Positions 7,389-25,720 of a DNA stretch of 33,335 nt are shown here, piece after piece. Each line of letters starts with the position of its first letter. Positions within the stretch are counted from its first letter, which is position 1. The stretch lies in NCBI GenBank assembly GCA_018304385.1, contig JAGVWJ010000001.1, positions 4,750 to 38,084 on the forward strand, in the 5' to 3' direction. A program made the translations under genes and the position numbers. Origin of the DNA: Candidatus Micrarchaeota archaeon. GTDB lineage: Archaea > Micrarchaeota > Micrarchaeia > Anstonellales > Bilamarchaeaceae. The notes under the pieces were generated by a model, which ran no database searches, had not been told where the DNA came from, and saw only the letters and a list, made by a program, of their open reading frames with translations.

Positions 7389-7889
7389 TTACTTTATTAA
7401 GATGCTCTCTGCAAACTTCAGTTCCTTCAGTTTTTTTATTACTTTGGCGCTAAGTTTTCCATCTATTATTATACTAAGTACTGGATCAGGGAATAAATCC
7501 GGGTCATCGCTAATTATCTGTCGAATTACTATCCCGTTATCAGCTAATATCTTAGTAACTGCTGCAATTATTCCTTTACCCTTTGGATTCGCTCGAATTT
7601 CTATTGCATCAAATCCCAATTCTTTCGCTGCATTTGCAATAAATGCACGCGATTCAAGCCGATAAAATATCTGCAATAGCTTATCATCATTTGCAATTGC
7701 CTTAGCTGTATCAATTACTACTCTGCGGTCAACACCTATTGCACGTGCAATTTTTGCTGGTGGAAGCTCAATTTTGCCAACATAAATCTTGCCTTTTCCA
7801 TCTACCTTCAATCCTAAGCGCAAGAATTCTGTTGCAACTATCTTGCGGCCTCGCGCATGTTCAAAAAACCTTTCAAGCATTTTTAACAT
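7389..7889 (-). CDS. trpY: TrpY-like HTH + ACT domain regulator of amino acid metabolism
   Basis: HTH-like PPAKIARAIGVDRRVV, C-terminal ACT-like GIIAAVTKILADNGIVIRQIISDDP, divergent from trpE. Start placed at MLKMLERFF, about 25 nt from TTTAAA 7914-7919; alternative starts 7898 and 7880. Confidence 0.75.
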   Translation of the reverse strand: MLKMLERFFEHARGRKIVATEFLRLGLKVDGKGKIYVGKIELPPAKIARAIGVDRRVVIDTAKAIANDDKLLQIFYRLESRAFIANAAKELGFDAIEIRANPKGKGIIAAVTKILADNGIVIRQIISDDPDLFPDPVLSIIIDGKLSAKVIKKLKELKFAESILIK

Positions 7890-7890
7890 A

Positions 7891-7928
7891 ATGTACATTT
7901 TTATACATAAAGGTTTAAATAGATACAT
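7891..7928. promoter_or_regulatory. Divergent trpY/trpE promoter with TRP-box-like sites
   Basis: TGTACA 7892-7897, TATACA 7902-7907 and GATACA 7922-7927 flank the TATA-like TTTAAA at 7914-7919. Confidence 0.6.
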
Positions 7929-7958
7929 TGTGCTGCTATCAGCATTGAGCCATGGGCC

Positions 7959-8084
7959 ATGGGCATTTGGTTCGATAAAAAGGTGAAACACATGGAAAAG
8001 GATGTTCTTTGGATTACACAGTATAAATTTGGAATTACAAATATCCCCAGTAGACTTATTCTCAGTGCTTTCAGAGCATTGTGA
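7959..8084 (+). other. Candidate upstream ORF overlapping the trpE start (41 aa, 2 Trp)
   Basis: MGIWFDKKVKHMEKDVLWITQYKFGITNIPSRLILSAFRAL*. The in-frame ATG at 7992 sits 5 nt after SD AGGTGA and is out of frame with trpE. Confidence 0.35.
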
Positions 8085-9366
8085 AAATGCATTCTTGCTT
8101 GAGAGTAGCGAAGGAGTTGAAAAACTATCCAGATTCTCATTCTTAGGTTTTTCTCCAGGTAAGAAAATAGCGTTAAAGAACAGTGTGCTAAATATCAATG
8201 GGCAAGAATCAGAAGCGAAGAAACCAGTAGTAGCGCTTAAAAACGAAATTTCTAAGAGCGAAATAAAAGCATCTGGGTTCTTAGGTGGTGCAGTTGGTTA
8301 TTTTTCTTTTGACTATATTAGGTATATCGAGCAGTTGAATAGTGCGTTAAAAGATGAAGTAAATTTTCCAGATTTTGAATTTGGTCTATTCAATGATGCG
8401 ATAATTTTTGATCATAAAGAAAACAGAATAAGATATGTCTATCAAAAAGAAAACAGACTTGAGCAAATATTAACGTTTATCAAAGACTCAGCTTTTATTA
8501 CAAAGCCGCTTGAAATCTATAATATAAAATCTAATACAACTAAAGAAAAATTCTGTGAAAATGTAGAAATTGCAAAAGAACACATTCGTGCTGGTGATAT
8601 ATTTCAAACAGTTATTTCTAAGCGTTATGAAATAAAATTTAGTGGAAGTTTAATCTCGTTTTATAAAAAATTAAAGGCAACAAATCCTTCTCCTTATATG
8701 TATTATCTGAAGTTTGGTGAGCGAGAGGTTATTGGGTCAAGTCCTGAGAATCTAATTCGCGTAGAGGATAGAAACATTACAAGCTATGCAACGCTTGCTG
8801 GTACAAGGCCGAGAGGAAAAACTCCAGAAGAAGATAAAAAACTGGAAATAGAGCTGCTGCAAGATGAAAAAGAACGTGCAGAGCACATAATGCTTGTTGA
8901 TTTAACTAGAAATGATATTGGAAAAATAGCAGAGGTAGGAACAGTTAAGGTACCAGAATTAATGAATGTTCACAAATACTCCCGTGTCCAGCACATAGCT
9001 TCTTTGGTTACTGCAAAATTGCGGAATGATAAGGACGTGTTTGACGCTTTTAATGCAATATTTCCAGCAGGCACAGTTTCAGGTGCACCAAAAATAAGGG
9101 CAATAGAAATAATTGATAGATTAGAAAAAACAAAACGTGGTCCATATGCTGGCGCAGTTGGCTATTTTTCAACAAATGGAAATGCAGATTTTGCAATTGG
9201 CATTCGCACTTTATTTGCAAATAAAAATCGTGCTTATATCCAAACTGGAGCTGGTATAGTTTATGATAGTGTCCCGGAAAAAGAATTTCAGGAAACAGAG
9301 AATAAGGCTAAAGCATTGTTGCATGCAATAGGAGAGGATAAATATGAAGCTACTATTAATAGATAA
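8002..9366 (+). CDS. trpE: Anthranilate synthase component I
   Basis: FLLES, GDIFQTVIS, NPSPYMY, LAGTRPRG, EHIMLVDLTRND, FPAGTVSGAPK. Start is uncertain (see findings). Confidence 0.95.
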   Translation: MFFGLHSINLELQISPVDLFSVLSEHCENAFLLESSEGVEKLSRFSFLGFSPGKKIALKNSVLNINGQESEAKKPVVALKNEISKSEIKASGFLGGAVGYFSFDYIRYIEQLNSALKDEVNFPDFEFGLFNDAIIFDHKENRIRYVYQKENRLEQILTFIKDSAFITKPLEIYNIKSNTTKEKFCENVEIAKEHIRAGDIFQTVISKRYEIKFSGSLISFYKKLKATNPSPYMYYLKFGEREVIGSSPENLIRVEDRNITSYATLAGTRPRGKTPEEDKKLEIELLQDEKERAEHIMLVDLTRNDIGKIAEVGTVKVPELMNVHKYSRVQHIASLVTAKLRNDKDVFDAFNAIFPAGTVSGAPKIRAIEIIDRLEKTKRGPYAGAVGYFSTNGNADFAIGIRTLFANKNRAYIQTGAGIVYDSVPEKEFQETENKAKALLHAIGEDKYEATINR

Positions 9367-9904
9367 CTTTGATTCGTTTGTTTATAATCTGTATCAATAC
9401 TTTGGAGAGCTAGGTTGCGAAGTAGATGTTTTTAGGAATGACGAAATAACATTGGAAACTGCAGCGCAATACGATAAGATCGTTATTTCTCCAGGTCCAG
9501 GGGATCCAACTAATAAAAAAGATTTTGGCATTTGCAGTGAGATTATTTCTAAAATAAATAAACCTATTCTTGGCGTATGTTTGGGGCATCAAGGTATAAT
9601 CAGCACCTTTGGCGGCAAAATAATTCGTGCAGCAAAGCCAATGCATGGAAAAATGAGTGAAATTAAACATAATGGTAATGGCATATTTGCAGGAGTTAAA
9701 AACCCACTAAAAGTAATGCGCTACCATTCGCTTATTGGAGAAAATTTGCCAGATTGCTTAGAAGTTCTTGCAAAAAGTCAAGACGATAATTCAATAATGG
9801 CCGTGCAGCATAAAACTCTGCCTATTTTTGGTGTGCAGTTTCATCCAGAATCAATTCTAACAGAAGAAGGAAAGAAAATATTACAGAATTTTTTGAAGGC
9901 GTAG
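9344..9904 (+). CDS. trpG: Anthranilate synthase component II (glutamine amidotransferase)
   Basis: IDNFDSF, SPGPG, GVCLGHQ, RYHSL, QFHPES. Confidence 0.96.
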   Translation: MKLLLIDNFDSFVYNLYQYFGELGCEVDVFRNDEITLETAAQYDKIVISPGPGDPTNKKDFGICSEIISKINKPILGVCLGHQGIISTFGGKIIRAAKPMHGKMSEIKHNGNGIFAGVKNPLKVMRYHSLIGENLPDCLEVLAKSQDDNSIMAVQHKTLPIFGVQFHPESILTEEGKKILQNFLKA

Positions 9905-9907
9905 AAA

Positions 9908-10912
9908 ATGGAATTCTTGCAGATATTACATAAGTTGATTGATAAAGAAAATCTTACAGATGGTGAAGCAGCCTTTGCTTTAGAGGAAATAATGCAAGGA
10001 AAAATAAATAATGCTCAAATTGCAGCATTTTTAACCGGGTTAAAGATAAAAGGCGAAAGTATCGAAGAGATCGCAGCATTTGTAAAAATAATGAGGAAAA
10101 ACGCAATAAATTTTTTTCCAAAAGTAAAGAACCTTGTTGATACTGCAGGCACAGGTGGGGATGGAAGTAAAACATTTAACATTTCAACGTGTGCGGCATT
10201 TGTTGCTGCTGGCGCAGGTGCAAACGTTGCTAAACATGGCAATCGTGCAGCATCTAGTAAAAGCGGAAGTGCAGATGTTTTGGAAGAATTAGGAATAAAT
10301 AGTATTACAGAACCGACAATCGCCGAAAAACAACTAGAAGGTATTGGTATTACGTTTCTATTTGCGCCAGCATTTCACCATGCTATGAAATTTGTCGCGC
10401 CAGTGAGAAAAGAGCTAGGATTTAAAACTGTGTTTAATATCCTTGGTCCGCTAACTAATCCAGCAGGTGCGAAGCGGCAGTTAATTGGGGCCTATGATAA
10501 ATCATTATTAAAAAAATTGGCAGAAGTTCTAAAACTACTTGGAACAGAAAAAACACTTTTAGTTTCAAGCGATATTGACGAAATAAGTATATGTAGTGAG
10601 ACTGAACTTTATGAAATTACTAATGGGGAGATAAAAAATTATAACATCATACCAGAGGATTTTGGATTTAAAAGAGCAAGCTTAGACGCAATTCGAGTTG
10701 AAGATAAAACAAAAAGTGCAGAAGTTTTGCTAAATGTTTTGAAAGGCAGAGACGGCGCTGCTCGAGATATTGTTTTACTAAATTCAGGTGCAGCAATTTA
10801 TGCAAGTGGCATTGCAAATAATATTCAACAAGGTATTTCTCTTGCAGAAAAATCAATTGATTCTGGTAAGGCATTGGAAAAACTAGAATTATTAAGAAAT
10901 TTTAAGGCTTGA
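9908..10912 (+). CDS. trpD: Anthranilate phosphoribosyltransferase
   Basis: DTAGTGGDG, FNIST, AKHGNRA, FNILGPLTNP. Confidence 0.97.
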   Translation: MEFLQILHKLIDKENLTDGEAAFALEEIMQGKINNAQIAAFLTGLKIKGESIEEIAAFVKIMRKNAINFFPKVKNLVDTAGTGGDGSKTFNISTCAAFVAAGAGANVAKHGNRAASSKSGSADVLEELGINSITEPTIAEKQLEGIGITFLFAPAFHHAMKFVAPVRKELGFKTVFNILGPLTNPAGAKRQLIGAYDKSLLKKLAEVLKLLGTEKTLLVSSDIDEISICSETELYEITNGEIKNYNIIPEDFGFKRASLDAIRVEDKTKSAEVLLNVLKGRDGAARDIVLLNSGAAIYASGIANNIQQGISLAEKSIDSGKALEKLELLRNFKA

Positions 10913-10916
10913 TATT

Positions 10917-11669
10917 ATGGACATTCTTGATAAATTTATTGAACAGGCAAAGGAAAATGTGGAAAGTGGGTACTATAATGTTACCATCAAACATACTCTA
11001 GATAAAACTTCATTAAAACAAAAAATCCTATCACAAAACTTTACTTTAATCTCTGAAATAAAACATGCATCTCCTGCTGGAGAATATTCATTTGATAATA
11101 TTGATGTTGAAAAAGCAGCTGAAACATTTAAACAGGCTGGAAGTGATGCAATTTCAGTAGTAGTTGAACCTAAAATCTTCAAAGGCAACCTAAGTAACAT
11201 ATCAATTGCAAAAAAAACCGGTTTGCCAGTACTTTTCAAGGATTTTGTTTTTCATGAAAAGCAGATAAAAACTGCAGCAGCGCTTGGCGCAGATTGTATT
11301 CTTCTAGTTATGAAGGTTGTGGATAGATTAGCTATTGATATAAATGAACTAATTGCTAAAGCGCACGAGCATAAGTTAGAAGTTTTGCTTGAGTGTTACG
11401 ATTCTGATGAAATGAGACGAGCAATTAAAACAGATGCAGATATTCTTGGAATAAATAATCGTGATTTGCGATCTTTGCATGTTGATCTGAACAGGACTAA
11501 AGAAATTATGAAATTTGCTAAAAATAAGCCAGTAATCAGCGAAAGCGGTATAAACTCAAGAAAGGATGCTGAATTTGTACGTGCTTGCGGAGTAAAAGGC
11601 ATATTAGTTGGCACTGCTTTATGGAAAACAGATAATCAGTTAGAGAAAATAAGAGAACTTAAATTGTGA
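10917..11669 (+). CDS. trpC: Indole-3-glycerol phosphate synthase (monofunctional)
   Basis: [26 protein letters not shown]. 250 aa, no TrpF domain. Confidence 0.92.
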
Positions 11670-11674
11670 TTTGC

Positions 11675-12844
11675 ATGAATAAAGGAAGATTTGGTGAGTT
11701 TGGAGGAAGATACATTTCTGAATTACTAGTGCCAGTGCTGGAAGAATTAGAAACTGCGTTTGAAAAAGTAAAGGAGGATAAAGAATTCAAAAACAAATTA
11801 GATTATTACCTTTCAAAGTATGCTGGTAGACCCACCCCGCTTTATTTTGCAGAAAATTTAAGTAAAAAACTCGGAATTAAAATTTATTTAAAGCGAGAAG
11901 ATCTTTTGCATACTGGGGCGCATAAAATAAACAATACCATTGGTCAGGTTTTACTTGCCAGGACTATGGGGAAGAAAAGGGTAATTGCAGAAACTGGTGC
12001 AGGACAGCATGGAGTTGCAACAGCAACTGCTGCAGCGTTATTTGGATTAGAATGCGATGTTTACATGGGAAAAGAAGATGCTGAACGCCAAAAATTAAAT
12101 GTTTATAGAATGAAATTGCTTGGAGCAAATGTTAATATTGTTGATGCTGGTTCGCGCACTTTGAAAGATGCAATAAACGAAGCATTGCGTGATTATGCAA
12201 CTAATTTCAAAGATACGCATTATGTTCTTGGTTCTGCATTAGGTCCGTACCCTTATCCTTCTATTGTAAAATATTTTCAATCTGTTATAGGAATTGAAGC
12301 GAGAACGCAAATATTAGAAGCTGAGCAGTGTTTGCCTGATTATTTAGTTGCATGTGTAGGCGGAGGAAGCAATGCTATTGGGTTATTTGCCCAATTTTTA
12401 GACGATAATACTAAGATGATTGGAGTAGAAGCAGGAGGCAAAGGTATATCTACCGGAAAACATGCTGCTCGAATAAGCGGAGATGGACAAAAAGGGGTTT
12501 TACACGGTTCACTTTCGTATATTTTACAAGATAATGGGCAGATCAGAGAAACCCATTCTGTATCTGCAGGTTTGGATTACCCTGCAATTGGGCCAGAGCA
12601 TGCTTATTTGCATGAATTGAAAAGAGCGCAATATGTTTCAGTTACCGATAGTGAAGCTCTAGAAGCATTTCATTTACTTGCTGAAACTGAAGGAATTATA
12701 CCAGCGCTTGAAAGTGCGCACGCTATTGCATATTTGCCTAAACTTGCTAAGCAGAATAAAAACAAAATTATAATTGTTAATCTTTCTGGTCGTGGGGATA
12801 AGGATGTCGAACATGTTGCAAAAATAGAAGGTGCTAATTTATGA
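11675..12844 (+). CDS. trpB: Tryptophan synthase beta chain
   Basis: [48 protein letters not shown]. Start ATG 11675 (GTG 11666 is possible). Confidence 0.97.
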
Positions 12845-13659
12845 AATTTATCCCTTATGTTTGCTGTGGAGATCCGAATCTGGATTTTACTTACAAGGTA
12901 GTTAAAACGCTAGCGCCATACTCGCATATAATAGAATTAGGTATCCCATTCTCTGATCCAATTGCCGACGGAAAAACAATTCAGGCAGCAGCAAACAGAG
13001 CATTGACAGCAGGGCAAAAAAATGCTGTCAATATTCGTCATGATTCTCATGACGATGCATTAAAAAATGGAGTAAATACCGAGCAAATATTTGAAATGGT
13101 AAAAAAATTACGCAGCGAAAAAATTGCAGTGCCATTTGTCTTTATGACTTACTATAATATTATCTATTCATATGATTCTGAAAAATTTTTGCGAGCTATG
13201 AATGAAGCAAATGTGCAAGGACTAATAATTCCTGATTTACCATTTGGCGAAGATAAAGAATTTGAAAAGCTTGCAGAGGAATATGAAATTTCTATAATAA
13301 ATTTAATCGCCCCTAATACAAAAGAAGAAAGAGCCAAAGAGATTCTAAATAATGAAAAAAAATTTACTTACTTAGTTTCAGTTGCAGGGACAACTGGTGC
13401 GCGAGGCGAAGTGAGTGAACAAAGTTTAGAGTTTGTAAAAAAAATAAGACCGCTAGCTCCAAATGGACAGTTGTTTGTTGGGTTTGGTATTTCAAACGCA
13501 GAGCAGGCAAAAAAATTCGTTCAAGCTGGCGCTGATGGAGTGATAGTCGGCAGTGAGATAATTAATATTTATTCTAAATATATTGTTAATGGAAAGATTG
13601 ACGAGAATAAGGTATTAGAGGAAATTGAAAAATTTGCTGAAGTAATTCAGTCTGCATAA
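12841..13659 (+). CDS. trpA: Tryptophan synthase alpha chain with a 19-aa insertion
   Basis: [47 protein letters not shown]. Confidence 0.96.
13000..13061. repeat. 57-nt in-frame insertion of two perfect inverted repeats, flanked by GCATT direct repeats
   Basis: ATTGACAGCA/TGCTGTCAAT (13002-13011 / 13023-13032) and TCGTCATGA/TCATGACGA (13035-13043 / 13047-13055); GCATT at 13000 and 13057. Confidence 0.85.
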
Positions 13660-13700: not shown

Positions 13701-14489
13701 ATGTCAAAATCAAAAAGAGGCACTAGTTTTCCAAGAGGAAAAAGAATTAAAGACAGATGGACTACTTTTAGGCTACTGCTAAGGAAATGCGAAATAATAA
13801 TAGAAGTTCTTGATGCGCGAGATCTGGAAGGCACTAGAGTTAGAAAAATCGAGCATTGGGCCGGACGAGAGCGGCTTATCAAAATAGCAAATAAGATTGA
13901 TCTGATTAGCGAAGAGGCATTAAATTCAATTAATAGAAATGAATACTTGCCAATATCCTCAAAATCAGACCATAAAAACAAGGAAAGGAAAAAGATCATC
14001 AATGCAATACTTGCAAAAGGAAGGGAAAGACCAAGAGTGCTAGTTGTCGGTTATCCTAATGTTGGCAAAAGTACAATAATAAACTTACTAGCAGGAAGAG
14101 AGGTTGCCAGAGCAATGCCTATTGCAGGAACTACAACAAATGTCCAGTGGATAAGGCTTCCACATGATATTTTGCTTATTGATTCGCCAGGCGTTTTTCC
14201 AGAAGATGAGCAAAGAACTGAGCTGCTTAGAAAAGGGGCAATTAATGTTGACGGGCTGAAAAATTTTGAATTCTATGCTTTAAAAGTTGCACAAAAATGC
14301 ATCAGAAGCCAGGAATTGCGTAATTGGATTGAAGAATATTTTGATATTAAATTAGAAAGCGATAAGCCAGAAGATTTAATAGAAAATATTGCAAAAAGAC
14401 GTGGGTTACTACTAAAAGGCGGTGCATACAATATAAATGAAGCATCTAAAGCCTTGCTTAGGGCGTTTTCTAAGGCCCCCAGCTTATAA
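13701..14489 (+). CDS. Circularly permuted GTPase, RbgA/YlqF family
   Basis: VLDARD, NKID (G4) preceding GYPNVGKS (G1), GTT, DSPG (G3). Confidence 0.9.
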   Translation: MSKSKRGTSFPRGKRIKDRWTTFRLLLRKCEIIIEVLDARDLEGTRVRKIEHWAGRERLIKIANKIDLISEEALNSINRNEYLPISSKSDHKNKERKKIINAILAKGRERPRVLVVGYPNVGKSTIINLLAGREVARAMPIAGTTTNVQWIRLPHDILLIDSPGVFPEDEQRTELLRKGAINVDGLKNFEFYALKVAQKCIRSQELRNWIEEYFDIKLESDKPEDLIENIAKRRGLLLKGGAYNINEASKALLRAFSKAPSL

Positions 14490-14551
14490 AGAATATTTAT
14501 AAACCTTTTCATGCATAATAATATTAGAAAAGATGTATAAACGTGTTTTAT

Positions 14552-14617
14552 ATGAGTAATAAAGCTAAAGTAAACAACAAAGTATTCTATTTCTTCAGCT
14601 TTAGCTTTTGGTATTAA
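14552..14617 (+). CDS. Putative aromatic-rich leader peptide of the aro operon (21 aa)
   Basis: ATG AGT AAT AAA GCT AAA GTA AAC AAC AAA GTA TTC TAT TTC TTC AGC TTT AGC TTT TGG TAT TAA TAG. Eight of the last 10 codons are Phe, Tyr or Trp. Confidence 0.8.
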   Translation: MSNKAKVNNKVFYFFSFSFWY

Positions 14618-14620
14618 TAG

Positions 14621-14679
14621 CCAACACCAAACTGTTTGTATTAAGTCTTAACTAGTATCTGTTTGTTGTTGGTTTTTTT
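14621..14679 (+). terminator. Putative attenuator terminator (hairpin + U7)
   Basis: CCAACACCAAAC (14621-14632) pairs with GTTTGTTGTTGG (14661-14672) at 11 of 12 positions, followed directly by T7 (14673-14679). Confidence 0.75.
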
Positions 14680-14735
14680 CTGACTATGATTAGTGTTAAC
14701 AATATAAAATTTGGAAATGAAAAAATGGTGATCAA

Positions 14736-15560
14736 ATGGGGAATATTAAAAATATAAAACTCGCTGCGCTGAATGGAAGCGGTCGTACGATTGTGCGAGT
14801 TGGAAATGTAAAAGTTGGCGAAGGGTTTACTGTAATTGCCGGACCATGCAGCGTTGAAAGTGAAGAGCAATTGCTCGAGACTGCGCGAGCAGTAAAAGCA
14901 GCAGGCGCAGACATGCTTAGAGGTGGTGCGTTTAAACCGCGAACTTCGCCATACGCGTTTCAAGGACTTGGTCTAAAAGGATTAAAACTCTTGGAAAAAG
15001 CACGAGATGAAACTGGCTTGCCAATAGTTACTGAAGTACTCGATACGCGTGATGTTAGTTGGGTATGCGAATATGCAGACGTATTGCAAATTGGTGCAAG
15101 AAACATGCAAAATTTCTCGCTTTTAAAAGAAGTAGGAAAGGCAGAAAAGCCCGTGCTGCTAAAGCGTGGAATGTATTCAACAATAGAAGAGTGGCTAAAT
15201 TGCGCTGAATACATTCTAAATGATGGAAATCCAAATGTAATTCTATGCGAGCGTGGAATAAGAACATTCGAAACATACACAAGAAACACGCTTGACTTAA
15301 GCGCTGTTCCAGTTGCAAAAGAGCTTACGCATCTTCCAGTGATTACAGATCCTTCTCACGGTACTGGAAAATTAAGCCTGATTAAGCCAATGTGTCTTGC
15401 ATCTGTTGCTTGCGGTGCAGACGGTTTAATCTTAGAGGTGCACAGAAATCCTGCAGAAGCGCTTAGCGATAAGGATCAGGCGCTTACGCCAACCCAATTC
15501 GCAGATATACTAAAGGATGTAAGGGCATTACGAAAGTTCATGGATGGTGGGCATAAATGA
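14736..15560 (+). CDS. aroF: DAHP synthase type I-beta, no regulatory domain
   Basis: [46 protein letters not shown]; SD GGTGAT upstream. Confidence 0.95.
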
Positions 15561-16576: not shown

Positions 16577-17214
16577 ATGTTTGTGTCAGCATTGGAGATT
16601 GTTCAGTAGAAGAATGCATTAAGTCATTGCAAGATTTAGAGTTAGCTGAGATTAGATTAGATAAGATAAATGCAAAACTATCAACGGATGATGTTAAGAA
16701 TATATTCTCACAGAAACTAAAACTTATTGCCACCTGTCGCGCAACTAAAACACTTAATGATACTGAAAGAAAAAATCTTTTACTTTCTGCAATAGATGCA
16801 GGCGCAGCATATGTTGATATTGAAGTTGAGGCAAGCGATGCTTACAAAAATGAAATATTAAATAAAGCGAAATCTAAAGGTTGCAAGATTATTATTTCTT
16901 ACCATAATTACGAGAGTACGCCTAAAAAAGGTGAGCTTGAACAGATTGTTAATTGGTGCCTTGAGGCAGGAGATATTGCAAAAATTGCATGCAAAGTGCA
17001 ATCGCAACATGATAATGCAAGGTTGCTTAGCTTACTTGATACAGATAAAAAAATAATTGTTATTGGCATGGGTGAAAAAGGAAAAATAACAAGAATAGTT
17101 GCACCTTTGCTTGGTAGTCCATTCACTTATGCTTCACTTAAGGAAGGAAAGGAAACAGCAGAAGGTCAGATAAGCGTTGATAGATTAAAAGAATTAATGA
17201 GGTTACTAAAATGA
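16573..17214 (+). CDS. aroD: 3-dehydroquinate dehydratase type I
   Basis: AEIRLD, IATCR, YVDIE, IISYHNY, DIAKIA, MGEKGKITR, TAEGQ. Confidence 0.93.
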   Translation: MNVCVSIGDCSVEECIKSLQDLELAEIRLDKINAKLSTDDVKNIFSQKLKLIATCRATKTLNDTERKNLLLSAIDAGAAYVDIEVEASDAYKNEILNKAKSKGCKIIISYHNYESTPKKGELEQIVNWCLEAGDIAKIACKVQSQHDNARLLSLLDTDKKIIVIGMGEKGKITRIVAPLLGSPFTYASLKEGKETAEGQISVDRLKELMRLLK

Positions 17215-18494
17215 ATGCAAGTTTATACTGTGTAATCGGAGATCCAATAAGTCATTCGCTTTCTCCAGCTATGCATAATGCAGCATTTGCTAAGCTCGGT
17301 ATTAATGCAATTTACTTAGCAGTGCGAGTGCGAAAAGAAGAGCTTGGGCAAGCAATTGCACATTTGAAGATACTTAATGTTAAAGGAATTAATGTAACAA
17401 TTCCGCATAAGGTTGAAATAATTAAATACCTTGATAAATTAGATGAAACTGCAAAGGCAATTGGCGCAGTTAATACCATTGTAAATAAAAATGGAAAATT
17501 AATCGGATATAATACAGATGCAGCAGGCGCGTTAATCGCGATAAAAAAGAAAGTTAAAAATTTAAAAGGAAAAACCGCTGTTATATTAGGTGCAGGTGGC
17601 GCAGCAAGGGCAGTTTCTTTTGCACTAAATAAAGAAGGTGCAATAGTAAGAATGCTGAGTAGGCAGGAAATTGCAGAAGAACTTCCATCGCTAATACATG
17701 AAGCAAATATTCTATGTAATTGTACACCCGCAGGTATGCATGAGGGGGATAGTTTAATTCCAAAACATCTATTACGGAAAGGATTAGTTGTTTTTGATGC
17801 AGTATATAAAAAAGGTTCAACGAAACTAATCCGGGATGCAGAAGCTGCAGGTTGCGTAACAATTTCAGGAGAAGAAATGCTTGTAAACCAAGGTGCAATT
17901 GCATTTGAATTATGGGTAGGAAAAAAACCAAACGTTGGCATCATGCTTGAGGCTGTAAGCAAGAGCTTACGTTCAAAGTATTCAAAATCCAATATCTACC
18001 TCATTGGTTTTATGGGCAGTGGAAAAACAAGTGTTGGCAAGGCATTAGCTAAGAAATTGAAAATGAAATACATAGATGTAGATGAACAAATCGAGAGAAG
18101 AGCAAGAAAAACAATTGCAAGGATATTTGAAGAGGGCAGTGAGCACAAATTCCGTAAAATGGAAAAAAACGCTATCGTACTTGCAAGCAAAATAAAAAAT
18201 TCAGTTATTGCGGTTGGTGGCGGAGCAGTTTTAGATTACATTAATAGTTACAGGATGCAGCAAACAGGCAAAGTTATTTTACTAAGAGCAAGTCCTCAAA
18301 CAATTGTAAAAAGGTTGGAAGGTGAAAGTACGCGTCCGCTATTACTTGGTTTAAATAAAAAACAAAGATTAGAAAGAACAAAAAAGTTGCTTAAATTGCG
18401 CGAGCCGTTTTATGCTTTAGCGAAACAGTTCGAAGTTAGTACGAACGAGAAGAGAGTGGAGGAAATTGCAGATGAGATTAGGTGTTTACTATGA
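17211..18494 (+). CDS. aroE: Shikimate dehydrogenase - shikimate kinase fusion (AroE-AroK)
   Basis: N-part: HSLSP, NVTIPHK, GAVNT, GYNTD, LGAGGAARA. C-part from about 17990: IGFMGSGKT, EHKFR, GGGAV, RPLL. Confidence 0.92.
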   Translation: MNASLYCVIGDPISHSLSPAMHNAAFAKLGINAIYLAVRVRKEELGQAIAHLKILNVKGINVTIPHKVEIIKYLDKLDETAKAIGAVNTIVNKNGKLIGYNTDAAGALIAIKKKVKNLKGKTAVILGAGGAARAVSFALNKEGAIVRMLSRQEIAEELPSLIHEANILCNCTPAGMHEGDSLIPKHLLRKGLVVFDAVYKKGSTKLIRDAEAAGCVTISGEEMLVNQGAIAFELWVGKKPNVGIMLEAVSKSLRSKYSKSNIYLIGFMGSGKTSVGKALAKKLKMKYIDVDEQIERRARKTIARIFEEGSEHKFRKMEKNAIVLASKIKNSVIAVGGGAVLDYINSYRMQQTGKVILLRASPQTIVKRLEGESTRPLLLGLNKKQRLERTKKLLKLREPFYALAKQFEVSTNEKRVEEIADEIRCLL

Positions 18495-20857
18495 TAAAAT
18501 TTATCGTTAAAAACTCAAATATTGCAGGAACTATAGATGCAACGCCATCAAAAAGTTATACGCATCGTGCTATAATATGCGCAGCACTAGCTAGCGGAGT
18601 AAGTACAATAATTAATCCATTGATTTCAGATGATACAGAAGCAACCCTTACTGCTTGCGAAGCACTAGGTGCAGAGATTTTGGATAAGAACGAAGAACGC
18701 ATTGTAATAAAAGGTACCGGAGGCAAGTTAAAAGCAAAAAACACAACAATTAATTGTAATGAATCAGGCTCAACATTGCGCTTTTTAATTCCTTTAGCCG
18801 CTCTTGCAGATAAAGAAATTATTTTTACTGGAAAGACTGGACTTGCAACTAGGCCAATAGATGATTTACTAAATGCGCTTGCGCAGCTAGGAGTAAAAAG
18901 CACGTACGCTAGCGAAGATAAAAAACTACCAATGAAAATTTGCGGTACCGGCAGTTTAACTGGAGGAAAAATAGCCATTCGCGGAAATGTAAGCTCGCAA
19001 TTTATCTCTGGACTGCTGTTTGCATTGCCGCTTGCAATTAATGACAGCGAAATAGTAATAACAACTGAAGTTGAATCTAAAGATTACATTGAAATTACGT
19101 TAGATGTACTTAAAAAATTTGGAATAAAAGTCGAGCATTCTAGAGATTTAATTGAATTCAAAATAAAAGGCAAGCAACAATACAAATCATGCGAATATAC
19201 TGTTGAAGGAGATTATTCATCTGCAGCATTTATGCTTGTTGCAGGAGCAATTGCTGGCAATGGAGTTACTATTAATAATTTAAATAAAAATTCAAAGCAA
19301 GGAGATAAAAGAATAGTTGATTTATTGAAAGAAATGGGTGCGAAAATAAACGTAGAAGAAAATTCTGTTTCAGTTGAGCGGAGCGAGCTACGTGCTGTGC
19401 CAATAGATGCAAAAGATATTCCAGATCTCATTCCAATTCTTGCAATAGCAGCAACACAAGCTAATTTTACAACAGTAATAAAAAATGTTGGCAGGCTGCG
19501 GCTAAAGGAAAGTGATCGCTTGCAAGGTGTATTAAATATTATTACTTCGCTTCGTGGAACTGCAAAAATAGAAAACAATTCAATAGCAATTAGGGGAATC
19601 GCATCGCTAAAAGGCGCAGAAGTAGAAACACTTAATGATCATCGGTTAGTTATGGCTGCATCTGTTGCTGGTTTAGTTGCTGACGGAGAAACAATTATTC
19701 GTGATCCAACAGCAATTAAAAAATCCTATCCAAATTTTTATGATAATTTGCGGAAATTAGGTGCAGATACTATGGCAAGGTCTAATACTTTCGGTAATGC
19801 GCTTAAAATAACATTAATTGGAGAAAGCCATGGCAAGCGCATAGGAGTAATTATTGAAGGAGTGCTGAAGGACATAGAAATCTCACAGGAATTTATACAA
19901 AGCGAGGTTGATAAAAGAAGAAGTACGAGCGCTCTGACTACGCCAAGAAAGGAGAGCGACACAGTTAATATTGTTAGTGGAATAAAAGATGGAAAAACAA
20001 CAAGCGAAACGATTAGGATAGAGATAGAAAACAAAGACGTGAAATCGGAAACTTATGAGAAAACGAGAAATCTAATTCGTCCAGGCCATGCAGATTATAC
20101 AGCGCGTGAAAAATATGCTAGTGTATTTGATTACAGAGGTGGAGGATTCTTATCTGGTAGGATGACTGCTTGTTATGTAGCAGCAGGCGCTATTGCAAAA
20201 AAAATACTTGAGCGATTGGAGATCAAAGTACTTGCGCATACTGTGCAAGTTGGCAATGTAAAAGTAAAGCGCACTCTAAGTGATGAAGAGCTAGAACAAA
20301 ATCATTTATCAAATCTAGTGAGATGCGCTGATTTGGAAAAAGCAAAAGAGATGGAAATAGCAATTGAAAAAGCAAAAAGCAAAAACGATTCGCTTGGCGG
20401 AATAATTGAATGCCGCGTGCTCAACATGCCCGTAGGTGTAGGCGAACCAGTATTCTACTCACTAGAAAGCGAGCTTGCACAGGCAATGTTCTCAATTCCT
20501 GCAGTTAAAGGTGTAGAGTTTGGCGCTGGCTTTAAGGCAGCAGGAATGCGGGGAAGCGAACACAATGATCCAATAAAAATCGAAAATGGAAAACTTGTAA
20601 CGCTTACAAATAATGCTGGTGGAATCCAAGGTGGTTTAAGTAATGGTATGCCAATTGCTTTTCGCATTGCAATAAAACCAACATCAAGCATTGCAAAGGA
20701 GCAACAAACAGTTGACATAAAGAAAATGGAGGATGCAAAGATTGCAGTGTTTGGTAGGCATGATCCTTGCATTGCTATACGCGCACCACCGATTGTTGAG
20801 GCAATGGCAGCGCTAAGCATTGCGGATTTACTATTAGCTGGAAGATTTGTTAAATAA
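18491..20857 (+). CDS. aroA: EPSP synthase - chorismate synthase fusion (AroA-AroC)
   Basis: AroA: PSKSYTHR, ESGSTLR, SSQFISG, RLKESDR, DHRL, KSYP. AroC from ATG 19772: NTFG, GESHG, RPGHADY, NNAGGIQGG, RHDPC. Confidence 0.92.
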   Translation: MIKFIVKNSNIAGTIDATPSKSYTHRAIICAALASGVSTIINPLISDDTEATLTACEALGAEILDKNEERIVIKGTGGKLKAKNTTINCNESGSTLRFLIPLAALADKEIIFTGKTGLATRPIDDLLNALAQLGVKSTYASEDKKLPMKICGTGSLTGGKIAIRGNVSSQFISGLLFALPLAINDSEIVITTEVESKDYIEITLDVLKKFGIKVEHSRDLIEFKIKGKQQYKSCEYTVEGDYSSAAFMLVAGAIAGNGVTINNLNKNSKQGDKRIVDLLKEMGAKINVEENSVSVERSELRAVPIDAKDIPDLIPILAIAATQANFTTVIKNVGRLRLKESDRLQGVLNIITSLRGTAKIENNSIAIRGIASLKGAEVETLNDHRLVMAASVAGLVADGETIIRDPTAIKKSYPNFYDNLRKLGADTMARSNTFGNALKITLIGESHGKRIGVIIEGVLKDIEISQEFIQSEVDKRRSTSALTTPRKESDTVNIVSGIKDGKTTSETIRIEIENKDVKSETYEKTRNLIRPGHADYTAREKYASVFDYRGGGFLSGRMTACYVAAGAIAKKILERLEIKVLAHTVQVGNVKVKRTLSDEELEQNHLSNLVRCADLEKAKEMEIAIEKAKSKNDSLGGIIECRVLNMPVGVGEPVFYSLESELAQAMFSIPAVKGVEFGAGFKAAGMRGSEHNDPIKIENGKLVTLTNNAGGIQGGLSNGMPIAFRIAIKPTSSIAKEQQTVDIKKMEDAKIAVFGRHDPCIAIRAPPIVEAMAALSIADLLLAGRFVK

Positions 20858-23814: not shown

Positions 23815-24302
23815 AGAATGTGTTTCCACTGCTTGCAATACATACCAATTTCGTATTTTTATCCATTTTATATAAATAAAACGGAGGTGATCTATCCGCA
23901 GGTTCCCCTACGGATACCTTGTTACGACTTAGCCCCCCTCACGTCTAATCGGTTCGAACTAGGCAAGAACCTAGGTCTCACCGAATAAACATTTGGGTGA
24001 CTTGACGGGCGGTGTGTGCAAGGAGCGGGGACAAATTCACCGCGGGATGATGACCCGCGATTACTAGGGATTCCATCTTCATGAGGGTGAGTTTCAACCC
24101 TCAATCCGAACCACGGATGGATTTAGGGGATTAGCTCCTCCTTTCGGAGTTGCAGCCCATTGTTCCACCCACTGTATGCCGCGTGTAGCCCAGCGGTTTC
24201 GGACCATACTGACCTACCGTTGCCCACTCCTTCCTCCCATTTAGCACGGGCAGTCCTCTTAGAGTGCACCTTATCCGGAGATAAAGTTAGCAACTAAGAG
24301 CA

Positions 24303-24334
<32 letters not shown>

Positions 24335-24336
24335 AA

Positions 24337-24371
24337 TTTGTGCCATGAATTCACAATCAACATGAATCATG
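24337..24371 (-). other. 16S intron, 35 nt, about E. coli 1081/1082
   Basis: Central helix UGUG/CACA, cuts AA|C and AA|U, internal stem CAUGA..UUCA/UGAA..UCAUG. Boundary +/-1 nt. Confidence 0.75.
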
Positions 24372-24498
24372 TTCACACCACGAGCTGACGATGGCCATGC
24401 AATACCTCTCGGCTCGTTAGGCAAGATCTTTAGTCTGACCTTCATTCTGCCGTCGCCGCTGGTGATGTTCCCGGCGTTGTATCCAATTAAACCGTAGC

Positions 24499-24532
24499 TT
24501 TCGGTATAGTTAGCACTAATGCTAATCTATAT
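24499..24532 (-). other. 16S intron, 34 nt, about E. coli 947/948
   Basis: Central GUGG/CCGA (3 of 4), stem UAUAG-UUAGCA/UGCUAA-CUAUA. Removal restores h30 AUGCU, matching the partner strand GGCAU. Confidence 0.78.
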
Positions 24533-24533
24533 A

Positions 24534-24576
<43 letters not shown>

Positions 24577-24614
24577 ATCTTGCGATCGTACTCCCCAGGT
24601 GGTCGACTTAACAG

Positions 24615-24659
24615 CTAAGCCAAGATGTAAGCACGTACCTAAAAACCCTTACATCTTGT
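24615..24659 (-). other. 16S intron, 45 nt, about E. coli 866/867
   Basis: Canonical BHB: central GGGU/GCUU, bulges AG|A and AG|C, 11-bp stem CAAGAUGUAAG/CUUACAUCUUG. Confidence 0.85.
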
Positions 24660-24722
24660 CTACCCTACAGCACTATACCAGATTACTCTGGTATAACACC
24701 ACAGTCGACATAATTTACAGCG

Positions 24723-24758
<36 letters not shown>

Positions 24759-24800
24759 CGCTTTAGTTCCTCACCGTCAGATGCGTTTTGGACAGACGCC

Positions 24801-24856
24801 TTAGCTTGCACTCCATCTCATTATATTAAAATTTAAATTTGTGACATGTCGTGCAA
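24801..24856 (-). other. 16S intron, 56 nt, about E. coli 727-730
   Basis: Stem UUGCAC/GUGCAA, central GGCG/AGCU (3 of 4). Boundary ambiguous by 2 nt. Confidence 0.72.
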
Positions 24857-25077
24857 TACGCCACTGGTAGTCCTTCCAGGCTCAACGGATTTTACCCCTA
24901 CCCTGGAAGTACTCCTGTCCTCCCCCGCTCTCAAGTTTAACAGTATCCACTGCACGCGTTAGAGTTGAGCTCCAACATTTCACAGTGGACTTAATAGACC
25001 GGCTACGAACGCTTTAGACCCAATATTCGTGGGTACCACTCGAGGCGCTGGTTTTACCGCGGCGGCTGCCACCAGTC

Positions 25078-25127
25078 TTAGGCCAATTCCTAAAGACTGT
25101 CATGTATAAGCAAATCTTCAGATTTGT
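25078..25127 (-). other. 16S intron, 50 nt, about E. coli 509/510
   Basis: Canonical BHB: central GGGC/GCCU, bulges AA|A and AA|G, flanking helices on both sides. Confidence 0.85.
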
Positions 25128-25154
25128 TTGCCCACACCCTTATTCTCCGACCTT

Positions 25155-25201
25155 TATAAATTTTTTGGTGAAGCTTTTTAGGCAACCCGAAAAAGTTTTA
25201 T
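25155..25201 (-). other. About 46-nt AT-rich insertion at the apex of 16S helix 17
   Basis: Interrupts CCGACUG-UAAAAA-GGUCGG; internal hairpin CUUUUU..AAAAAG; no convincing BHB. Confidence 0.6.
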
Positions 25202-25720
25202 TTACAGTCGGCAAAAGGTATAAGCTAAGCTTACACCACTCAGAGTCCCCCTATCACGCTTGCGCGCATTGTAAAGGTTTCGCGCCTGCTGCATCCCGTA
25301 GGACTAGGGTCCTTGTCTCAGTACCCTTCTGGGGGCCACCACTCCCATGGCCCCTAAGGATTATCGCCTAGGTGAGCCGTTACCTCACCTACTAGCTAAT
25401 CCTCCGCAGTCCCATCCTAAGGCGGACAAGTTCCAATTCACTTGCCTTTTAAACCATCAAGCATTGCAGCATAGATGATTTATCGCGGGTTAGCCTCAGT
25501 TTCCCGAGGTTATCCACGTCCTTAGGCTAGGTTGACTACGTGTTACTCAGCCGTATGCCACTCTTACAAGTGCAAGAGTAGACTTGCATGGCTTAATCGA
25601 ACTCTGATAGCAGTACCCTCCAGCAGGATCAACTGGAGTTAAAAACTCTAGTTGTTCACTGCGAGTATACGAATTTTGGAAGTATCTTAATTGAAATTAG
25701 CGTTGGAATCACTACAATTT

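Follow-up and report, generated by a model that had tools for sequence, protein, structure and literature searches.

Ribosome-mediated attenuation of amino-acid biosynthetic operons is classical in bacteria. In the enterobacterial pheL-pheA and trpL-trpE attenuators (Rfam Phe_leader and Trp_leader) cognate codons are clustered in a leader peptide, and mutually exclusive RNA pairings are read out by the position of the ribosome. The closest described system is the aroR-aroF attenuator of Corynebacterium glutamicum (Neshat et al. 2014, as summarised in PMC11802643). Here a short leader ORF with Phe/Tyr codons lies directly upstream of the DAHP synthase operon, and ribosome stalling is reported to raise transcription under limitation for Phe, but not for Tyr. 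In archaea, control of aromatic biosynthesis is represented by a protein, the DNA-binding repressor TrpY of the trp genes of Methanothermobacter. Transcription and translation are coupled in archaea, but no established case of leader-peptide attenuation in them was found in the literature searched; one tool paper states in general terms that uORFs act in all domains (PMC10219788).

The locus described here belongs to a 33,335-nt stretch of Candidatus Micrarchaeota DNA (assembly GCA_018304385.1, contig JAGVWJ010000001.1, positions 4,750 to 38,084; hereafter the window). It carries an aromatic-rich leader ORF upstream of aroF, as in C. glutamicum, but in an uncultured archaeon with a TATA promoter. 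As compared with aroR, the leader is longer and richer in aromatic codons (5–18 in the family), no canonical terminator hairpin is present, and the U-tract is embedded in a long helix abutting the stop codon. In contrast to pheL and trpL, there is no GC-rich 3:4 terminator, the first helix encloses the whole ORF including the start codon, and the alternative partner of the switch segment is the leader's own SD region; no Rfam leader family was hit even at E of 10 or less. The layout is not the classical bacterial 1:2/2:3/3:4 terminator design. In contrast to TrpY, the element is a translated-looking leader.

The leader ORF and its conservation

The ATG at 14552 opens a frame of 21 codons (MSNKAKVNNKVFYFFSFSFWY) on the + strand, terminated by TAA at 14615–14617 and TAG at 14618–20. 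The last ten codons hold 5 Phe, 2 Tyr and 1 Trp, and the aroF ATG (14736) lies 118 nt after the stop. The observation made by the first-pass annotation, including its residue counts, is therefore confirmed. That annotation cautioned that T-rich DNA inflates the number of Phe codons; chance and T-richness are rejected as the cause by the genome-wide rank and by the frame control described below. Among 19,008 ATG ORFs of 12–45 codons on both strands of the 1.53-Mb genome (36.5% G+C), only two have at least 8 aromatic residues in the last ten codons, and the other one lies antisense inside a 93-codon ORF, which leaves the present ORF as the only intergenic one. The conserved core of the element occurs once in the genome.

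The conservation of a short ORF ending in F/Y/W codons, named beforehand as the test of the idea, was examined by searching aroF in 60 relatives and then in 400 genomes of the phylum and reading the upstream DNA of all loci found. The gene was found in 70 of 401 genomes sampled, and 47 of about 70 Micrarchaeota loci, spread across the order and class and with aroF identity of 47–90%, carry a homologous ORF of 19–40 codons (median 24) whose second half is aromatic. Thirty-two of these are among the 37 loci whose aroF is at least 72% identical, and fifteen more have distant, long-form aroF genes; the leader family spans both AroF forms. The test is thus passed, as orthologous loci keep the ORF despite nucleotide drift. 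All 47 leaders have at least 3 Phe codons, 46 have Tyr and 36 have Trp, and overall they are 32% aromatic against 8.8% in long ORFs of this genome. Most share the core F-S-F-S/G-Y, whereas the rest of the peptide drifts freely, including F/Y/W interchange. The C-terminal half is 52% aromatic in its own frame, against 4% and 14% in the other two; in-frame stops number 0 by construction, while the other frames hold 51 and 100, so neither can be read through. Three loci (L108, L117 and L125; L numbers denote individual aroF loci) have one or two perfect mini-hairpins inserted inside the ORF, and all three keep the frame. In one locus, L116 (G339:C53:4580-5350), the leader and switch are absent, and the GTGGTTTGA motif that normally precedes the leader ATG sits directly before the aroF ATG, as if the leader had been deleted precisely.

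These data bear on two alternatives. A functional aromatic micro-protein acting in trans could account for the conservation of the F-S-F-S/G-Y core at the protein level, and some bacterial leader peptides, such as peTrpL, have trans roles (PMC7298713). However, only the composition and an RNA-constrained core are conserved, length varies, in-frame hairpin insertions are tolerated, and the ORF is always immediately upstream of aroF and present as a single copy, so this explanation is very unlikely. It is also improbable that the ORF is incidental to a structured 5'-UTR RNA binding a ligand or a protein, or to a DNA operator palindrome. The core AGCUUUAGCUAU is indeed conserved even at synonymous sites, the H1 arms (see below) form an inverted repeat, and a TrpY-like HTH+ACT regulator is encoded nearby. 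Nevertheless the reading frame, start, stop position and aromatic composition are all kept as length and sequence change, also outside the conserved core and in lineages with a different core (L016–L018, L136, L153). Bacteria with unrelated sequences have the same aromatic ORF before aroF, there is no Rfam match, and frequent G-U pairs argue against a DNA palindrome.

The first-pass annotation saw no clear SD and no securely placed TSS, and both points can be refined. A TATA box matching TTTATAWA in at least 7 of 8 positions lies at a median of −50 from the leader ATG in 32 of 47 loci; in the window it is TTTATAAA at 14496–14503, which predicts a TSS near 14526, upstream of the ORF and inside the conserved AATATTAGA. 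No TATA box is conserved between the leader, or H2, and aroF: the TATA-like ATATAAAA at 14702–09, considered as an internal promoter, is not conserved, and in L011 and L118 there is no room for it. An SD-like stretch (GUGUUUU at 14543–14549 in the window, GUGGUUU in most relatives) sits 2–4 nt before the ATG. The 16S rRNA ends in GAUCACCUCC, with which this stretch can pair only through wobbles, and the leader SD is weak in the window, while the SD of aroF (GGTGATC, 14727–14733) is a perfect match.

RNA helices and the alternative pairing

Two helices recur at these loci and covary. H1 (14561–14608) pairs the first codons, often including the AUG, with the F-S-F-S-Y codons and the last codons, so that it encloses the whole ORF. 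In the window 14561–14571 (the N-terminal Ala-Lys codons) pairs with 14598–14608 (the F-S-F-S codons), and outer pairs reach the start and stop codons. H2 (14616–14679) has a purine-rich 5' arm, C (for example GGAAAACC), which begins between 22 nt before and 9 nt after the stop codon in nearly all order-level loci, and a 3' arm, D (GGUUUUCC followed by UGAUGC). In the window 14619–14632 pairs with 14661–14674, and the base of the helix (14616–17 with 14676–77) joins the stop-codon A's to the T7 run at 14673–14679.

RNAalifold on MAFFT alignments found almost nothing because of indels, and the helices were therefore tested with explicit structures. Over 47 loci the mean z-scores against dinucleotide shuffles are −1.8 for H1 and −2.4 for H2. 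H1 is 75.8% paired against 28–47% for slid controls, with 28 doubly changed cells against 9.3 in shuffles, and H2 is 73% paired against 41–53%. On a cleaner 18-row alignment (A4) the two together are 83% paired against 35–54%, and eleven pairs show compensatory changes (30 cells against 10.3 in shuffles, a level reached by 0 of 500 shuffles). As the sequences are related and not independent, the shuffle counts are not probabilities and overstate the support. Many positions alternate A-U with G-U, which points to RNA of the + strand.

Segment C has a possible second partner. The SD-like stretch before the leader AUG (region 0) resembles D in each lineage and is complementary to C. This 0:C pairing is 84.6% paired on the alignment, though with little covariation within that group; duplex energies are −10 to −13.5 kcal/mol in many loci, with mean z of −1.3, and lineages with different C sequences (L008, L009, L012, L111, L120 and the window's own group) have matching region-0 sequences. 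C can pair either with D or with region 0, and the two pairings are mutually exclusive. In the window itself the 0:C pairing is only about 5 bp (14543–47 with 14623–27), against 7–13 bp in relatives. Pairing of the aromatic codon stretch with C, the classical 1:2, is not supported (mean z +0.2), and neither is a region-4 partner for D nor sequestration of the aroF RBS: nothing downstream pairs with D or consistently with any upstream segment. The latter holds also for a conserved block after H2 (14682–14703, consensus UGAC..UUAGWGKUAWUGAU). No tRNA or known RNA family was found in the gap.

Runs of five or more T lie within 70 nt after the stop in 35 of 47 loci, nearly all of them inside the H2 loop or 3' arm, and twelve loci lack such a run. 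The intrinsic terminator of the bacterial class, a GC-rich hairpin immediately followed by a U-run, is not found in the family; only the window's group has a U-run right after H2. The bacterial aroF loci obtained in the same search differ in this respect. Aromatic-rich leaders precede the homologous DAHP synthase in many bacteria of several phyla (L027, L037, L044, L056, L059, L069, L073, L074, L077 and L081), including Spirochaetia (L027), Geobacteraceae (L056, L074, L081), Clostridia (L037, L059, L073), Anaerolineae (L077) and Ktedonobacter, and they are followed by canonical GC hairpins and U6–9. This is a widespread attenuator class beyond the described aroR. The Micrarchaeota family shares none of that sequence and has its own F-S-F-S/G-Y, H1 and H2 design.

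Inferred mode of control

The element is probably a cis-acting leader-peptide sensor of aromatic supply at the 5' end of the aro operon mRNA, and the model as a whole is held to be more likely than not. The analysis itself demonstrates the conserved aromatic ORF, helix H1 closing it, helix H2 (C:D) with U-tracts in its 3' arm and loop, and the complementarity of C to region 0. Translation of the leader, the response of the operon to aromatic amino acids, the output step and its sign are inferred from sequence alone. The interpretation of the first-pass annotation, a multivalent sensor of all three aromatic amino acids, is only partly supported: conservation of the ORF and its flanking helices agree with a leader-peptide sensor, but sensing of all three is not shown, since Trp codons are present in only 36 of 47 leaders and aroR, the one tested bacterial analogue, reportedly does not respond to Tyr.

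In this view transcription would start about 26 nt before the leader AUG, and the ribosome would slow at Phe/Tyr/Trp codons when the charged tRNAs are scarce, its position deciding how C pairs. A ribosome stalled on the aromatic codons would keep H1 open, so that 0:C could not zip on from H1; C would pair with D as it emerges, masking the U-tract, and the polymerase would read on into aroF. A ribosome reaching the stop codon would cover C, and after its release H1 plus 0:C would re-form faster than D can compete. In either case the U-rich D would be left single-stranded and the transcript would end there, by intrinsic oligo-U termination or by aCPSF1/FttA-type termination; archaeal termination relies on U-tracts rather than hairpins. 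The logic would be that of the bacterial 1:2/2:3 attenuator with the 3:4 terminator hairpin replaced by an exposed archaeal U-tract. It gives the sign expected for a biosynthetic operon and would explain the fixed geometry of the stop codon and C, as well as the tolerance of insertions of 170–370 nt between H2 and aroF, which fits a decision made at H2. Control of premature 3'-end formation at the U-tracts is the most likely output, but this particular output and sign remain tentative. U-tracts in the H2 loop stay exposed even when H2 forms, and it is not established that an RNA hairpin can block archaeal termination.

The T7 run directly following H2 in the window looks like a bacterial-type terminator, and if H2 is the terminator the wiring is reversed, with 0:C as the antiterminator. 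In most relatives the inner stem (CCAC/GUGG) is followed by U4–5, and the bacterial homologous loci do use hairpin-plus-U terminators. This alternative is nevertheless unlikely. The stop codon lies on or next to the H2 5' arm, so a ribosome that finishes the leader would block the terminator, which is the wrong sign for a biosynthetic operon; the inner stems are short with 15–25 nt loops, and archaeal RNA polymerase needs no hairpin to terminate.

A translational mechanism is also possible but unlikely. H2 hides an SD-like GUGGUUU plus AUG at its 3' arm, and a ribosome stalled on the last aromatic codons, or terminating, might melt H2 and allow translation of a second short ORF running to or over the aroF ribosome-binding site, thereby setting aroF translation. 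D resembles the leader's own SD region and is usually followed by AUG or GUG. In the window the possible second ORF (ATG 14686, 23 codons, 14686–14757) partly covers the conserved block and overlaps the aroF start out of frame; an ORF starting at the H2 3' end covers this block in one frame in about 15 of 31 loci, and in L110 it is in frame with aroF, so that the same AUG would start aroF itself. The aroF SD is slightly more open with a stalled ribosome than with a terminating one (0.48 against 0.42; 12 loci against 3). However, the second ORF is not universal and its frame varies, the aroF SD and AUG are not consistently paired with upstream segments as an ermC/cat-type attenuator would require, the insertions in L003, L004 and L009 would break the coupling, and in the L001 group D drifts away from the SD consensus while staying complementary to C.

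Leader-peptide attenuation and an aromatic leader before aroF are known from bacteria; the archaeal family with its H1/H2 design was not found described. It provides a defined case on which attenuation in archaea can be examined, with 47 natural variants carrying built-in compensatory changes, a clear sensor (aromatic codons) and a compact switch of about 180 nt. It is possible, though tentative, that Micrarchaeota carry a native archaeal form of ribosome-mediated attenuation in which a helix anchored on the leader's stop codon hides an oligo-U termination signal, the leader's own Shine-Dalgarno region is the competing partner, and the position of a single ribosome sets 3'-end formation by the archaeal machinery. 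This would be the first attenuator design adapted to hairpin-independent archaeal termination; it would show how the bacterial logic can be rebuilt on archaeal termination rules and would give a natural tool for amino-acid-responsive control in archaea. On the sensor reading, some DPANN archaea regulate a complete aromatic pathway rather than simply lacking it.

Genomic surroundings and origin of aroF

The window carries a trp operon (trpE to trpA, 8002–13659), a GTPase gene (13701–14489) and, after a 246-nt gap, an eight-ORF aro operon running to 23767. Its first gene, aroF (14736–15560, + strand), encodes a short-form DAHP synthase I-beta (PF00793, E 3.6e-81) and is followed by aroB, aroD, aroE-aroK, aroA-aroC, pheA, tyrA and an aminotransferase. 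An ACT-domain gene (7389–7890, − strand) lies divergent from trpE in a TrpY-like layout. No Trp-rich leader is present before trpE (7890–8002), where an ATG at 7992 with a good SD opens a 29-codon frame out of frame with the trpE ATG at 8002. A crude scan of the genome for other amino-acid leaders (His, Trp, Cys, Leu and similar runs) gave nothing convincing.

The distribution of aroF is patchy: it was not found in the two same-genus genomes G001 and G002 (92% and 75% complete). The short-form AroF is 70–72% identical to Spirochaetia enzymes, that of L027 being 70% identical to the window's. In a quick tree the short-form AroF of these Micrarchaeota forms a supported clade (SH-aLRT 96), inside which two Spirochaetia, one Aminicenantes and one Paenibacillaceae sequence sit unresolved; other archaeal AroF sequences are scattered among bacteria. 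Transfer between the domains is likely, in a direction that the tree leaves open.

The insertions between the switch and aroF are arrays of small perfect hairpins (L004:2314-2679, L003:2311-2493 and L009:2308-2451), with 11 hairpin tips in 366 nt in L004 (dG −145 kcal/mol). Together with those inside the leader ORFs of L108, L117 and L125 they look like mobile mini-hairpin insertions, in line with the hairpin insertions noted in this genome by the first-pass annotation. The archaeal 16S rRNA gene (23882–25639, − strand) spans 1758 nt against a 1478-position model and thus carries about 280 nt of insertions, which the same annotation called micro-introns. Two gene fusions occur in the aro operon, namely shikimate dehydrogenase with shikimate kinase (17211–18494) and EPSP synthase with chorismate synthase (18482–20857).
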